The position numbers and the translations under genes were made by a program. Below, piece by piece: positions 13,785 to 37,024 of a stretch of 64,000 nt of DNA (the stretch's first letter is position 1; each line of letters starts with the position of its first letter). The stretch comes from Candidatus Latescibacterota bacterium. GTDB taxonomy: Bacteria > Latescibacterota > UBA2968. Below the pieces are notes generated by a model. That model had not been told where the DNA came from, did not search any database, and worked only from the letters and a program-made list of their open reading frames with translations. The DNA lies in the NCBI GenBank assembly GCA_965222605.1, contig OZ244960.1, positions 1,824,001 through 1,888,000 on the forward strand. The letters are read 5' to 3'.

Positions 13785-13801
13785 CTCACCATCCGTTCAA
13801 C

Positions 13802-13879
13802 AAACTCCCTACGCCGGCATGATCCGGATCAGGTACAAAGGGTATAATCTCAGCTCACAGCAGCAAGCACCCCTGTCTT
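13802..13879 (-). ncRNA. TPP riboswitch (thiO operon leader)
   Basis: Minus strand AGGGGTGC..GCTGAGATTATACCCTTTGTACCTGATCCGGATCATGCCGGCGTAGGGA matches the THI-box consensus. Confidence 0.95.
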
Positions 13880-13893
13880 CTTTTAACTTTGCA

Positions 13894-13938: not shown

Positions 13939-15813
<1,875 letters not shown>

Positions 15814-33293: not shown

Positions 33294-35180
33294 TTAACTC
33301 ACCTCAGCCCCATCGCCAATCTCGCTATCAGGCGTTACGAGAGTGAGACCGTGATCGTCGGAAGCCGCCAGCAGCATACCCTGGGACTCGACACCGCGAA
33401 TAGTCGCGGGTTCCAGATTGGCAACCACCACAATCTGCCGCCCAACGAGCGCATCCGGCTCATAATACTCGGCAATCCCGGCGACGATCTGGCGTTGCTC
33501 ATCGCCCAAACTAATTTGCAAACGCAGCAAGCGATCTGCTCCTTTCACGCGCTCGGCTGCGTCAATATTTGCCACGCGCAATTTGAGCTTCTGAAATTCT
33601 GAAAAAGAAATCAAATCTTCCTTCGCTTTTTCTTCTGCCACATTGACCTCCTCAATACGCGGGAATACTGGATCGCCAGGTGCAACTTTCAAATTGGCAT
33701 CCAGACCTCCCCATGATTTTAAGTCATCCAAATGAACATCTTCCGGCGATCCCTTTGCGCCGAGTTGCCGCCAAATCTCACACGCCTTTGAGGGAATCAC
33801 GGGAAATAGCAACACAGATAGTTGTCGCATGGTCTCCAGCAACGCATAAATCGTCACCTCGAGTTCGGCCCTTTTGCTTGCGTCCTTCGCCAAATGCCAC
33901 GGCGCCTGCACCTCGACAAACCGGTTGGCCTCCCGCACCAATTGCCAAATCGCATCCAGCACCGCATTGGGATTCATCGCATCAATAGCTTTGCCCACCG
34001 CATTGAGCGTCTCCTCCGTCTGCGCTTTCAAAGCGTCGAGTGCCGCATGATTACCATCAACAGCAGGTACAACACCATCCAAATATCGCGCAGCCATAAC
34101 CACCGAGCGATTCAGCAAATTGCCCAACTCATTCGCCAACTCGGTATTATAACGCTGGACAAAAGCCTCTTCGCTAAAATCGCTATCTTGCCCCAGCGTC
34201 ATATCGCGCACCAGAAAATACCGAAACGCATCCACGCCGTATTTATCCGCCAAATCCAGCGGTCGAATCGCATTGCCCAGCGACTTCCCCATCTTTGTCT
34301 CATCCACGAGCCAAAATCCATGCCCCATAATCGTTTTGGGCAATGGCACACCTATCGCCTTGAGCATCGTGGGCCAATACACGCAGTGCGTAGTCAAAAT
34401 ATCCTTACCAATCAGATGGCAAGACGCCTGCCACCAGTGCTCAAAACGCGCGTCATCGGCGAGATAGCCCGGTGCCGTAATATAATTGATCAGGGCATCG
34501 AACCACACATAACAGACATAATCTTCATCAAAAGGAAGCGGAATCCCCCACTCCAAACGCGCCCTGGGGCGAGAAATACACAAATCGCCCAGCGGTTGAC
34601 GCAAAAACCCGAGAATCTCATTGCGCCGCTTTTCCGGTCGAATAAAATTGGGGTGTGTCTCAATATATTCAATGAGCCAGTCCTGGTATTTGCTCATTTT
34701 AAAAAAGTAATTCTTCTCCGAAATCTTCGCCGTCGGCCGCCCACAATCCGGACAATTCCCATCAACCAGGTCCTTTTCCGTCCAGAACCGCTCGTCTGGG
34801 ATACAATACCAGCCCTCGTAATTGTCGGAATAGATCTCGCCCGCATCGTAAATGTGTTGCAAAATCTCGGAGACAACGCGCTTGTGCCGCGCTTCGGTTG
34901 TGCGAATAAAATCATCGTTTGAAATATTTAAGATCTCCCACAACGCCTGAAATCGCACCACCATTTCATCCGCATGTGCCTGCGGCGACAGATTGCGTTC
35001 TTTCGCAGCCTCATCCACTTTCTGCCCGTGCTCATCCGTACCGGTCAAAAACAACACATCATCGCCGGCCAGGCGATGAAAACGCGACAGCACATCGGCC
35101 ATAATCGTCGTGTACGCATGTCCGATATGGGGTTCATCATTGACGTAATAAATCGGTGTTGTAATATAAAATGTGCCCAT
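33294..35180 (-). CDS. metG: Methionine--tRNA ligase with C-terminal tRNA-binding domain
   Basis: PHIGH, YVWFDAL, KMGKS and an OB-fold C-terminus. Confidence 0.97.
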   Translation of the reverse strand: MGTFYITTPIYYVNDEPHIGHAYTTIMADVLSRFHRLAGDDVLFLTGTDEHGQKVDEAAKERNLSPQAHADEMVVRFQALWEILNISNDDFIRTTEARHKRVVSEILQHIYDAGEIYSDNYEGWYCIPDERFWTEKDLVDGNCPDCGRPTAKISEKNYFFKMSKYQDWLIEYIETHPNFIRPEKRRNEILGFLRQPLGDLCISRPRARLEWGIPLPFDEDYVCYVWFDALINYITAPGYLADDARFEHWWQASCHLIGKDILTTHCVYWPTMLKAIGVPLPKTIMGHGFWLVDETKMGKSLGNAIRPLDLADKYGVDAFRYFLVRDMTLGQDSDFSEEAFVQRYNTELANELGNLLNRSVVMAARYLDGVVPAVDGNHAALDALKAQTEETLNAVGKAIDAMNPNAVLDAIWQLVREANRFVEVQAPWHLAKDASKRAELEVTIYALLETMRQLSVLLFPVIPSKACEIWRQLGAKGSPEDVHLDDLKSWGGLDANLKVAPGDPVFPRIEEVNVAEEKAKEDLISFSEFQKLKLRVANIDAAERVKGADRLLRLQISLGDEQRQIVAGIAEYYEPDALVGRQIVVVANLEPATIRGVESQGMLLAASDDHGLTLVTPDSEIGDGAEVS

Positions 35181-35194
35181 TTTTCTACACCCAC

Positions 35195-36253
35195 TCAAAA
35201 GGACTTCATCTGCCGCCAGAGCGAGATCAAGCCCAGATTCATATTCACATTGCGATGATTCATCTCTCGCAAAGATTCAATCTTTTTTATCGTTGCGGTC
35301 AGGTGATCGAGATCAAAAACCTCCGCCAATCGCCCGACATTGTCCTCCTGCGCGGCATTGACAATATGATCGCCCCGACCGCATTGCAACAACAGCGCGT
35401 CTCTGAGCCAAATTTCTGCACCTGCCAAAATATCCAATGCCTCTTGTCGGTCGAGTTTTGCAAGTGCTTCAAACGTGCGCTCGTCCTGCCCCCACAGCAA
35501 GGCTTCCAAAAACCTAAAAGAGCGATCTTGTCTGTCTGCAATATGGCCGTCGGTCATATCCAATGCCCGGCGAAAGTTGCCGCTACATGTGCGTCCAATA
35601 AAATCTGCCGTTGTTTTATCAACACCCTTTGCCACTAACTCGGCACTGATATCATGCGGTGAAAGCACGGGAAATTTCACAAACTGACACCGCGACACAA
35701 TAGTGGGCAACAACGCATCGCCATGGGATGCAATCAAAATCAGCAACGACCGAACAGGCGGTTCCTCCAGGATTTTCAACATGGCATTGGCCGCCTCTGC
35801 GCGCATTTGATCTGCGTGCAAAATAAGCGTCGTGCGCCAGCCCCCCGCAAAAGCACTATGTGTAAACTGCCGCTGCATCTGCCGAACGCGATCAATAGTA
35901 ATCCCCACATTCTTGTCGGGCAATGGATAGTGATAAGGCGATTGCCACACCTGCAGCAGTGCGGCTTGCCTAACTTCCTCTTTCACGCTCCGAGAAAAAG
36001 GAAAGAGCATCATACTATCCGGATGGTTGAGATTTGTCACCTTGTGGCATGCGGCACAACGCCTACAGGCCACAGCACCATCTGTCTGGCAATGCAATGC
36101 CTGCACAAAATCCAAAGCTGCCGCCACTGCACCCGTACCAGAAGTGCCCAAAAACAACAGCGCGTGCGGGACTCGATCTCTTTCAATCAATTCGGTCAAA
36201 AACCGAACCGCTCGCCCCTGTCCAATCACCCGTTCCAAGATATTGCCTCTCAT
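35195..36253 (-). CDS. holB: DNA polymerase III delta' subunit
   Basis: HALLF, Zn cysteines, HPD, AANAMLK.LEEP and TIVSRC. Confidence 0.92.
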   Translation of the reverse strand: MRGNILERVIGQGRAVRFLTELIERDRVPHALLFLGTSGTGAVAAALDFVQALHCQTDGAVACRRCAACHKVTNLNHPDSMMLFPFSRSVKEEVRQAALLQVWQSPYHYPLPDKNVGITIDRVRQMQRQFTHSAFAGGWRTTLILHADQMRAEAANAMLKILEEPPVRSLLILIASHGDALLPTIVSRCQFVKFPVLSPHDISAELVAKGVDKTTADFIGRTCSGNFRRALDMTDGHIADRQDRSFRFLEALLWGQDERTFEALAKLDRQEALDILAGAEIWLRDALLLQCGRGDHIVNAAQEDNVGRLAEVFDLDHLTATIKKIESLREMNHRNVNMNLGLISLWRQMKSF

Positions 36254-36257
36254 GATG

Positions 36258-36295
36258 AAAAGCCGCTGGAACGGAACATTCCAACGGCTTTTTTT
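36258..36295 (-). terminator. Hairpin terminator/attenuator immediately upstream of holB
   Basis: Minus strand GCCGTTGGAA-N7-TTCCAGCGGC-TTTT. The G-U pair favours the minus strand. Confidence 0.65.
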
Positions 36296-36299
36296 CTAA

Positions 36300-36448
36300 T
36301 GCAAACGACTAAAATGATCCGCTATCCATGCTCCTGCTCACAATGGGAATGTACAACATGTGCAGCCCGTACAGTGACGGGCATCGGCATTTGCATTGTT
36401 GGCAAAAAAAACAACATGGAACAGCTCCATAATCAAAAGTTATTCGCA
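36300..36448 (-). ncRNA. Candidate structured RNA (~150-nt rod-like hairpin), family unknown
   Basis: Nested stems with multiple G-U pairs, bounded by a near-consensus promoter and a terminator (see findings). Confidence 0.55.
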
Positions 36449-36460
36449 ATGCGATGGCAA

Positions 36461-36489
36461 ATAATATACCTTATCCACCCATTTGTCAA
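36461..36489 (-). promoter_or_regulatory. sigma70-type promoter for the RNA/holB operon
   Basis: TTGACA-N17-TATTAT on the minus strand. Confidence 0.7.
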
Positions 36490-36524
36490 GACTTTATTAT
36501 TAAAGTTGTTTTACCTCTAAACTG

Positions 36525-36553
36525 TTGACACTTGCGATACAATTTTTTAAGTT
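36525..36553 (+). promoter_or_regulatory. Possible sigma70 promoter for the groES-like gene
   Basis: TTGACA-N17-TAAGTT. Confidence 0.45.
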
Positions 36554-36604: not shown

Positions 36605-37024
36605 ATGCAAATAGGAAACAAAGAACTCGTCGTTATTGGCGACCGCGTTTTGGTCAAGCGGGAAGATTTGGAAGAGCGGACCAAAGTGGGGCTTTATTTG
36701 CCTCAAACTGTGGTCGAAAAAGAGGAAGTACAGAGCGGTCGCATTATGGCCACGGGGCCCGGTCTGCCGCTGCCAGAAACGCCCGAAAACGATGAACCCT
36801 GGCGCAATACTCCAAAAGAAACGCGATATTTGCCCCTGCAAGTTGAGGAAGGAGATTTTGCCTTATTTTTGCAAAAAGCCGCGATGGAGATTTCTTTTGA
36901 AGGCGAGAAATATCTCATTGTACCCCAGGCTTCTATTCTCGTTGTGATTCGAGAGTCGGATACCGTGGTGGGCGGAGACGAGGTATTGGATGAACTGGAG
37001 GGTTTGGACGATCTCGATCTGTGA
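36605..37024 (+). CDS. GroES/Cpn10-family co-chaperonin with acidic tail, no adjacent groEL
   Basis: GDRVLVK, GLYLP, G.I.A.GPG and EGEKYLIV. Confidence 0.85.
   Translation: MQIGNKELVVIGDRVLVKREDLEERTKVGLYLPQTVVEKEEVQSGRIMATGPGLPLPETPENDEPWRNTPKETRYLPLQVEEGDFALFLQKAAMEISFEGEKYLIVPQASILVVIRESDTVVGGDEVLDELEGLDDLDL

Follow-up and report, generated by a model that had tools for sequence, protein, structure and literature searches.

A candidate methionine-sensing leader-peptide attenuator upstream of holB and metG in Candidatus Latescibacterota

The leader upstream of holB and its genomic setting

The region directly upstream of holB and metG, which code for the delta' subunit of DNA polymerase III and for methionyl-tRNA synthetase (MetRS), was analysed in a stretch of 64,000 nucleotides (nt) from a Candidatus Latescibacterota genome (contig OZ244960.1, positions 1,824,001 to 1,888,000; hereafter the window). 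All coordinates are positions in this 64-kb window, and the element in question lies on its minus strand. A first-pass annotation had described the region as a highly structured RNA with its own promoter and terminator, and had offered three options for it: a divergent 6S RNA, a novel small RNA (sRNA), or a leader or attenuator. The present results favour the last of these, leave the sRNA less favoured and lend no support to 6S RNA. The element is real and conserved, it is neither a 6S RNA nor a free-standing sRNA gene, and we propose with moderate confidence that it is a ribosome-mediated leader-peptide transcription attenuator, which senses the charging of Met-tRNA on behalf of the holB–metG operon. 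The small open reading frame (ORF), rich in Met and His, that had already caught attention at first pass proved to be the key part of it. The features of the locus are collected in Table 1.

Table 1. Features of the holB–metG leader and of the genes behind it (window coordinates)
Feature	Position	Strand	Remarks
Sigma-70-type promoter	36461..36489	-	-35 TTGACA 36489-36484, 17-nt spacer, -10 TATTAT 36466-36461
Shine-Dalgarno site GGAG	36425..36428	-	7 nt 5' of the leader-ORF ATG
Leader ORF, 31 codons + TAG (MLFFLPTMQMPMPVTVRAAHVVHSHCEQEHG)	36322..36417	-	
Met codons 8, 10, 12	36382..36396	-	36396-36394, 36390-36388, 36384-36382; proposed sensing codons
Apical hairpin GCCCGU-N6-ACGGGC	36365..36382	-	Directly 3' of Met12
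Segment 1, translation-initiation region	36402..36425	-	36425-36414 including the ATG, plus 36407-36402; rod partner of segment 2
Segment 2, GGAGCAU-GGA-UAGCGG	36319..36334	-	Last three codons, stop and 3 nt beyond
Post-stop stretch GCGGAUCAUUUU[A/G]GUCGUUUG	36302..36322	-	3' strand of the rod base
Segment 3, from the 5' arm and loop of the terminator	36273..36287	-	CCGUUG 36287-36282 (5' arm) + AUGUUCC 36279-36273 (stem top plus loop)
Intrinsic terminator	36258..36295	-	A-tract, stem GCCGUUGGAAUG / CGUUCCAGCGGC, 3-nt loop, UUUU 36261-36258
holB (DNA polymerase III delta')	35195..36251	-	Pfam PF13177, 1.4e-42; ribosome-binding site GAGAGG 36251-36246, start TTG 36238
metG (methionyl-tRNA synthetase)	33294..35198	-	Pfam PF09334, 3e-111; start overlaps the holB stop by 4 nt

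The promoter claimed at first pass, TTGACA-N17-TATTAT, is present and agrees with the consensus at 11 of 12 positions. A promoter scan returned 2 promoter-like sites in 1.3 kb, where 1.4 are expected by chance. The -35/-10 region is retained in 21/21 genomes of the genus set, which consists of the genome itself and 20 others, while the sister genera of the same family, g6 (n = 3) and g5 (n = 1), carry a CTTGACAAAT...TATCAT version. From the position of the TATTAT box, transcription would start near 36454, about 7 nt past it, giving a predicted leader of about 197 nt. The ATG at 36253, previously taken as the start of holB, had to be given up, since a 2-nt indel shifts it out of frame in most members of the genus. 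Based on the alignment, the start was reassigned to the TTG at 36238, which is accompanied by GAGAGG 7 nt upstream in 21/21 genomes. The terminator ends 20 nt before this TTG and 6 nt before the ribosome-binding site of holB.

Following the leader, and all on one strand, are holB, metG, tatD, ksgA, a class IV aminotransferase gene, proC, hisH, hisF, proB, ftsB and recO. The adjacency of holB and metG extends beyond this genome, with metG directly behind holB in all nine further genomes of the order that were examined. The 20 nt between terminator and start leave no room for another promoter, and since the gene upstream of the leader is divergent, the holB–metG transcript must pass the terminator. 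This divergent gene (36605-37024, plus strand) codes for a 139-residue Cpn10-like protein, an atypical GroES relative in which the best stretch of the match covers residues 10-54 only.

Each of the 20 other genus genomes contains the 241-nt stretch once, with an identity of 76-93%. In g6 (3/3) and g5 (1/1) the hairpin of the terminator is the only alignable part, and the layout is the same, with a CTTGACAAAT-type promoter, a leader of 220-240 nt, the hairpin and holB. The full leader is confined to these three genera and always precedes holB. In g8 and g11, from the second family of the order, the same hairpin also stands before holB, 30-45 nt past a CTTGACA promoter and with no ORF in between; there it has the form GCCGUUGG[A/G]A...UUCCAACGG followed by U5-6 (loci L059:1320-1420, L062:1370-1470 and, on the minus strand, L064 at about 1440-1540). 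Seven other hits, in Clostridia, Bacteroidales and others, were discarded as unrelated terminators behind other genes, and a second site in genome G052 proved to be a chance match inside an epimerase-like coding gene. A looser hairpin pattern returned at least 120 loci from metagenomes, with the N-terminus of HolB nearby in 0/120 of the matches listed, so that these added no further members.

The terminator itself, described earlier as having only four U, was confirmed as a 16-bp hairpin followed by UUUU at 36295-36258. A consensus terminator scan, which requires at least five T and thus one more than the site has, returned no terminators; across the leaders, the 16-bp hairpin carries U3-U5. 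The stem sequence is retained across the order in 28 of 53 genomes and is far better conserved than HolB (40-55% identical across the order), and the hairpin is single-copy in its own genome. Substitutions in the stem replace A by G, with the facing U in the 3' arm in some cases and in the 5' arm in others, and each of the three kinds observed is wobble-compatible on the minus-strand RNA only. As these changes keep G-U pairing on one strand only, the hairpin is an RNA element, and a reading as a DNA palindrome or operator was rejected. In the g6 loci (L022-L024:1490-1550) the stem extends through the A-tract and the U-tract to form a perfect palindrome with about 23 pairs, ACAUGUUUAAAAAGCC...GGCUUUUUAAACAUGU, which exceeds the length that a terminator requires.

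Contigs of relatives that are 85-99% like the stretch were present in four metatranscriptome runs from four studies. In two of the studies, an RNA-library contig (36028-36440 and 36125-36335) spans the terminator and continues into holB, reaching more than 31 nt to either side. These contigs are compatible with read-through and hint at it weakly, as RNA libraries can also yield contigs that stem from DNA, and transcript ends are not visible in them. One contig ends at 36440 and the same run has no cover of 36448-36549, but this was not accepted as a transcription start, since a gap in cover is not evidence of one.

Leader ORF, rod and competing helices

Two small overlapping ORFs had been pointed out at first pass and both lie where they had been placed. 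The second (36338-36430), however, loses its ATG in three members of the genus and was rejected as part of the element because its start codon is not conserved. In all 21 genus genomes the remaining ORF has an invariant GGAG 7 nt upstream of its ATG. The g6 leaders (3/3) have a 34-codon ORF with AGGA or GGAG 10-11 nt before the ATG, and the single g5 leader has a 37-codon ORF without a Shine-Dalgarno site. The leader-ORF frame is open in all 25 homologous leaders, and the other two frames contain 1-4 stops each in g6 and g5; within the genus these other frames are mostly open as well, so an open frame says little there. Indels in the ORF are multiples of three (6 nt in one genus member). Variable sites fall on codon positions 1, 2 and 3 in the numbers 9, 19 and 18, and since second positions vary as much as third positions, the peptide sequence is under no purifying selection. 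Judged by these comparisons, the pattern marks a leader peptide for which translation itself counts, rather than a functional microprotein.

The invariant codons of the ORF are either Met codons or codons inside RNA pairings, namely those of the start and stop regions and of the apical hairpin. Met is found at codons 8, 10 and 12 in 18 of the 21 genus genomes, and the remaining three have two or three internal Met. Two of the three g6 leaders carry denser clusters at codons 8-13 (M-M-x-M and M-M-H-M-M-M), so that Met clusters occur in 23/25 leaders and are absent only from G025, a member of g6, and from the g5 genome. Calculated with the Met frequency of the genome (1.97%), and with windows picked after seeing the data, the chance of finding three Met within five codons of a 30-codon peptide is P = 0.0012, and the corresponding values for the g6 clusters are 0.0007 and <5e-6. 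Within the genus, every AUG lies opposite a CAU in the predicted rod-like fold of the leader, and His is enriched as much as Met. The Met run of g6 pairs with GUU/UGU instead of CAU, and there it is therefore no mirror image of His codons.

The loss of the Met cluster in G025 coincides with the decay of metG. Behind holB this genome retains only a remnant of metG (L033:3724-4389, on G025:C549) with similarity to MetRS residues 422-633 and 5 stops, in which a 147-residue ORF for the tRNA-binding domain is left. A short MetRS, 36% identical, is encoded on a separate AT-rich contig of G025 (L092) and may be a xenolog or a binning contaminant. A His attenuator for the downstream hisH and hisF was also considered and rejected, because stalling at the His codons, which are in or close to segment 2, would promote termination, and because these codons are not retained in the sister genera.

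The nested pairings listed at first pass, including the apical GCCCGU/ACGGGC, are all part of the minimum-free-energy fold of 36255-36460. The absence of a classic central bubble was likewise confirmed, the largest interruptions of the fold being a 6-nt bulge and a 7-nt asymmetric loop. This 206-nt stretch has a folding energy of -72.4 kcal/mol, compared with -53.7±4.8 for 200 dinucleotide shuffles (z -3.92, 0/200 as good). The description as a highly structured RNA is thus correct for the stretch as a whole, but the terminator supplies most of the z-score. When the terminator was left out, the rod of the own genome reached z -1.90, with 9/200 shuffles as good, and the corresponding values were -0.79, -1.23, 0.00, -0.39 and +0.96 in five other genus members and -2.6, -2.65, -0.2 and -1.75 in the sister genera.

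In the 21-genome alignment, 90.1% of the cells of the rod are paired, compared with 32-48% when the partners are slid. Only 2 pairs show two-sided changes, the covariation score is matched by 440/500 shuffles, and none of the measures rises above the shuffles. The sequences of the genus are too similar to one another, and the structures therefore rest on conservation and on three clades only. RNAalifold retains just three helices, those between the start region and the stop region, of the apical hairpin and of the terminator. The apical hairpin has 99.2% of its cells paired in the 21 genomes and recurs in g6 with altered pairs, GCCCUU/AAGGGC and GCCAUUAC/GUAGUGGC, among them one compensatory pair (CG->AU); it may serve as an RNA-polymerase pause or coupling hairpin. 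For the diverged g6 leaders (n = 3) a similar rod topology is predicted, with 3 compensatory pairs, and a rod is likewise predicted for g5. G010 and G018 lack 8 nt on the 5' side of the rod base, and yet the 3' strand, which is the post-stop stretch, is nearly invariant in the 21 genomes; this stretch is also a weaker candidate partner of the terminator arm (-12 to -13 kcal/mol). Taken together, the rod is plausible, but neither thermodynamics nor covariation demonstrates it. The earlier argument that the many G-U pairs imply selection on RNA holds for the terminator; for the rod, neither of these signals could be obtained.

A second helix competes with the terminator. Searches for an antiterminator with the terminator 5' arm alone gave energies no better than those of shuffles, and a signal was only obtained when the loop was included. 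The duplex of segment 2 and segment 3 in the own genome has an energy of -18.9 kcal/mol, compared with a best-of-shuffle mean of -12.6±1.7, and in 5/6 genus representatives no site pairs more strongly with the 5' arm and loop of the terminator than segment 2, which ranks second in the sixth. In the 21-genome alignment, 270/273 cells (98.9%) of this antiterminator are paired, a share that drops to 39-62% once the partner is slid. Pairing is kept through eight one-sided changes, and none is two-sided. In the helix between segment 1 and segment 2 (alignment columns 33-44/127-137), 7/11 pairs are invariant and pairing extends to 91.8% of the cells. As segment 2 also pairs with the initiation region in the rod, the helices 1:2, 2:3 and 3:4 are mutually exclusive, as in classical attenuators.

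The loop is the only variable part of the terminator, and it covaries with segment 2 across the genera. Written with segment 2 first, the pairs are GGAGCAU/AUGUUCC in this genus and GGUGCAU or AGUGCAU/AUGCACU in g6, which includes one A-U to U-A swap, and the g6 segment-2 site has the same offset from the stop codon as in this genus. In g5 the pair is CGGAAAGA/UCUUUCCG, just past the stop. The duplex with the leader's own loop is better than that with a swapped loop by 3-5 kcal/mol in 8/11 sequences, the misfits being two divergent genus members and one g6 leader. Other partners for the terminator arm (ACAUUCC/GGAAUGU, the initiation region and U-run paired to the A-tract and arm, and the post-stop stretch) reach -9 to -15 kcal/mol and were rejected as either no better than shuffles or not conserved beyond the genus.

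The effect of a ribosome on this competition was assessed for five representatives (L001 being the leader of the window) by folding transcripts cut before the terminator 3' arm with a ribosome footprint imposed. With the ribosome at the start codon, the antiterminator is predicted in four of the five (not in L019). With the ribosome at a Met codon it is predicted in L001 (Met8 and Met10), L005 and L021 only, and not for every Met codon. It is absent from every prediction made with the ribosome on the stop codon, UAG 36324-36322, which is located inside segment 2.

A mechanism can be proposed on this basis. In an untranslated leader, segments 1 and 2 would pair in the rod, the terminator would form and an RNA of about 197 nt would be released. 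With charged Met-tRNA plentiful, the lead ribosome would reach the UAG and cover segment 2 as the terminator is made, and transcription would stop. With charged Met-tRNA scarce, ribosomes would stall at Met codons 8, 10 and 12 and queue over the initiation region, the bare segment 2 would pair with segment 3, the terminator would be blocked, and RNA polymerase would read into holB, metG and the later genes. As the Met codons lie downstream of segment 1, a queued or initiating ribosome would be needed to unmask segment 2. In this scheme we infer the translation of the ORF, the stalling at Met codons, the blocking of segment 1 by a stalled or queued ribosome, the timing of these events and the direction of the response to methionine.

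Weighing the proposed attenuator against its alternatives

Several observations weigh against a Met-sensing attenuator. In most genus members the rod does not exceed shuffles in stability, and two-sided covariation above shuffles is lacking within the genus for both the rod and the antiterminator. In g6 and g5 the antiterminator energies (-10.8 to -13.9, compared with about -13 for shuffles), taken alone, are no better than chance. When the full-length RNA is folded, the terminator persists at every simulated ribosome position; the trpE, trpS and ileS leaders of the same genome also keep their terminators under these conditions, so this test has no power either way. The Met codons are placed 20-35 nt downstream of segment 1, whereas the control codons of the classical trp leader are within that segment. 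Self-complementarity of AUG and CAU could have produced some of the Met enrichment as a by-product, and the coincidence of cluster loss and metG decay in G025 is a single event in a 930-contig assembly. The g5 genome is a counterexample, having an intact metG behind holB and yet a leader without a Shine-Dalgarno site and without internal Met. Finally, the ORF-less leaders of g8 and g11 suggest that the terminator module also works in some other way.

Other leaders of the same genome speak for the attenuator. A genome-wide screen for a Shine-Dalgarno site, a small ORF, a strong hairpin with a U-run and a long ORF recovered the holB leader together with leaders before trpE, a trpS paralog, ileS and an ABC-F gene, whereas candidates before leuC, argS, prfA and gltB were discarded as ordinary terminators of the upstream genes. 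The trpS-paralog leader (C1:1203470-1203920, minus strand; L094:1-451) has a small ORF with a GWW..W motif that ends in ...VRGWWSAVWVC, a second ORF with TGG-TGG-TGG (WWW) and two hairpin and U-run terminators, in front of a paralog of 248 residues. Its DNA has matches in 20/20 genus genomes, in g4, in g5 and in 2/3 g6 genomes, and in each of these three genera a WWW-containing peptide could be read at one locus. A second tryptophanyl-tRNA synthetase, of 371 residues, is encoded without a leader at C1:5626084. The ileS leader (C1:4070850-4071160, plus strand; L095:1-311) combines a 45-codon ORF containing AIGVICIY with a rod-like fold and a terminator, and the ORF of the own genome has three Ile codons, two of them ATA. 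Matches to this DNA were found in 19/20 genus genomes, and the three-Ile run (AIGVIRIY or a near variant) is present in 18 of the 20 genus loci listed, the own genome included.

The trpE leader (C1:1498990-1499270, minus strand; L096:1-281), with a 34-codon ORF containing FWYFW and a terminator, looks like a classical trp attenuator. A 25-codon ORF and a terminator precede the gene of a 602-residue ABC-F-type ATPase (C1:~4408856-4409080, plus strand); such a layout is common with translation-sensing attenuators. An upstream terminator was found for four of the 13 synthetase genes examined, namely metG (through holB), ileS, the trpS paralog and pheS, the last with the genome's sole T-box (RF00230; C1:3770674-3770925, plus strand, 111 bits) directly upstream of it. 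From these loci, leader-peptide attenuation appears to be in regular use in this lineage.

A first alternative, which we consider unlikely, retains the attenuator but has it report general translation or ribosome availability, as in growth-rate coupling, with the Met codons as an AUG/CAU by-product. It would suit an operon that mixes replication, translation and biosynthesis genes, as well as the equal enrichment of His and Met in the genus, where each AUG faces a CAU, and it would accommodate g5, which keeps the ORF, the rod, the antiterminator and metG without any internal Met codon. It does not account for Met clusters at codons 8-13 in two genera despite different pairing partners, nor for the decay of the cluster in the sole genome where metG left the operon. 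Moreover, the codons in the sister leaders of this genome match the genes behind them, with Trp for trpS and trpE and Ile for ileS.

Equally doubtful is an attenuator that works without translation of the ORF, in which a factor binds the invariant stem or the post-stop stretch, or RNase III cuts the rod, and the ORF is incidental. The order-wide retention of the stem GCCGUUGGAA/UUCCAACGGC, including the ORF-less leaders of 30-45 nt in g8 and g11, speaks in its favour, as do a post-stop stretch that stays invariant in the two genomes with a deletion in its rod partner and the mostly open state of the other frames within the genus. On the other hand, the Shine-Dalgarno site and the ATG are invariant, the leader frame is the only one free of stops in g6 and g5, and the Met cluster and its loss together with metG would be left unexplained. 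Furthermore, no gene for an RNA-binding regulator was found among 20 neighbouring ORFs scanned against Pfam.

A stand-alone sRNA, whether 6S-like or base-pairing, with its own promoter and terminator and with holB transcribed by leakage only, is improbable. The discrete promoter and terminator, the rod-like fold and the AU-rich stretch before the terminator would be expected of such a gene, a canonical 6S RNA was not found elsewhere in the genome, and sRNAs derived from attenuators are known, such as rnTrpL of Sinorhizobium (PMC6614838). However, no strong Rfam match, which had been considered at first pass, was obtained: no family reached its gathering score in the region, and a search with E up to 10 gave seven weak matches, all on the terminator hairpin, with at most 20 bits against cut-offs of 38-97. 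In the window as a whole, the only matches at gathering score are two thiamine pyrophosphate (TPP) riboswitches, both away from the leader. They are found back to back at 13789-13884 (minus strand) and 13981-14070 (plus strand), 97 nt apart, with 70.4 and 59.5 bits.

6S RNA in particular was rejected, as RF00013 has no match in the window (at gathering score or with E up to 10) or in the genome, the fold lacks a central bubble and the element is limited to three genera; the genome-wide blank is weak by itself, since the same search found 6S RNA in only 5/14 control genomes. The T-box family RF00230 has no match in the window either, and as the pheS T-box of this genome was detected at 111 bits, a T-box here would have been detected. 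Further points against a stand-alone sRNA are that the rod is not thermodynamically exceptional, that the element is invariably joined to holB, a gene without a further promoter here, and that the leader ORF shows coding-frame signals. Least probable is a functional microprotein of 31 residues, Met/His-rich and for example metal-binding, with the RNA features secondary, since the conserved ORF, its Shine-Dalgarno site and an H-x-x-H-x-H-C motif in the genus are outweighed by second codon positions as variable as third ones, by peptides of g1 (this genus), g6 and g5 that share little beyond the positions fixed by RNA pairing, and by the absence of that motif from three genus members and from the sister genera.

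The Met-sensing leader-peptide attenuator thus remains the favoured reading. It can be extended into a tentative evolutionary scenario, which is possible but rather unlikely in its entirety. The hairpin would be an older regulatory module that also works without a leader ORF, as in g8 and g11, by way of some other factor or signal, and in one family an ORF-bearing insert between promoter and hairpin would have made it a Met-tRNA sensor, one of a wider set of attenuators of synthetase genes (metG, ileS and the trpS paralog). With holB as its first gene, the operon would make the amount of clamp-loader delta' subunit depend on the charging of methionine-tRNA, which, if true, would be a direct link from translation status to DNA replication.

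Significance and comparison with known systems

Leader-peptide attenuation of synthetase genes is documented for few of them, namely pheST, trpS and leuS of Streptomyces and hisS paralogs of Bacillus, according to PMC1262725 and PMC2965389. If confirmed, the present case would add a new amino acid, Met, and an uncultured lineage, Candidatus Latescibacterota, and these organisms would be seen to use a T-box for pheS alongside leader peptides for metG, ileS, the trpS paralog and trpE. An essential replication gene under an amino-acid-charging signal would also be uncommon. In terms of annotation, the region would be described as a leader rather than as an sRNA gene, and the start of holB moved to TTG 36238.

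The literature, in which subscription journals were thinly covered so that absence is not proven, yielded no methionine-codon leader and no attenuator before metG or holB. PMC1262725 and PMC2965389 contain 0 mentions of metG, metS or holB.

Among the known systems, 6S RNA resembles the element in its size of about 200 nt and its overall rod-like shape. In contrast to 6S RNA, the element has no model match and no central bubble, carries an ORF with a Shine-Dalgarno site, occurs in three genera and has a fixed position as the leader of holB. The likeness to a T-box is functional only, in that a synthetase gene would be controlled by tRNA charging through a terminator/antiterminator switch.

The trpL leader of enterobacteria follows a four-segment logic (1:2, 2:3, 3:4), with a stop codon beside segment 2 and a hairpin after the control codons. 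The leader of holB shares the four segments, the stop codon at segment 2 and the hairpin after the control codons as a possible pause site. The control codons of trpL, however, are inside segment 1, while here they are 20-35 nt downstream of it, and the antiterminator here uses the loop of the terminator together with its 5' arm.

In Streptomyces, trpS and leuS are preceded by predicted classical attenuators (PMC1262725), and in Bacillus hisS paralogs have His leader peptides in front of them (PMC2965389). Both are similar to the present case in being leader ORFs of synthetase genes outside Proteobacteria that were found by comparative sequence analysis.

The pheST operon is presented as a classical attenuator in PMC1262725. 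In Escherichia coli, where the leader peptide is pheM, the likeness lies in a cognate-rich leader peptide, an intrinsic terminator and an aminoacyl-tRNA synthetase operon, and the signal in both cases would be the charging of the cognate tRNA. Compared with pheST, the leader described here would respond to Met and not to Phe, the first gene behind it is holB and not the synthetase gene, and its control codons alternate (M-x-M-x-M) instead of forming a run. Moreover, segment 1 is the initiation region of the ORF itself, and the two systems belong to different phyla and share no sequence similarity.

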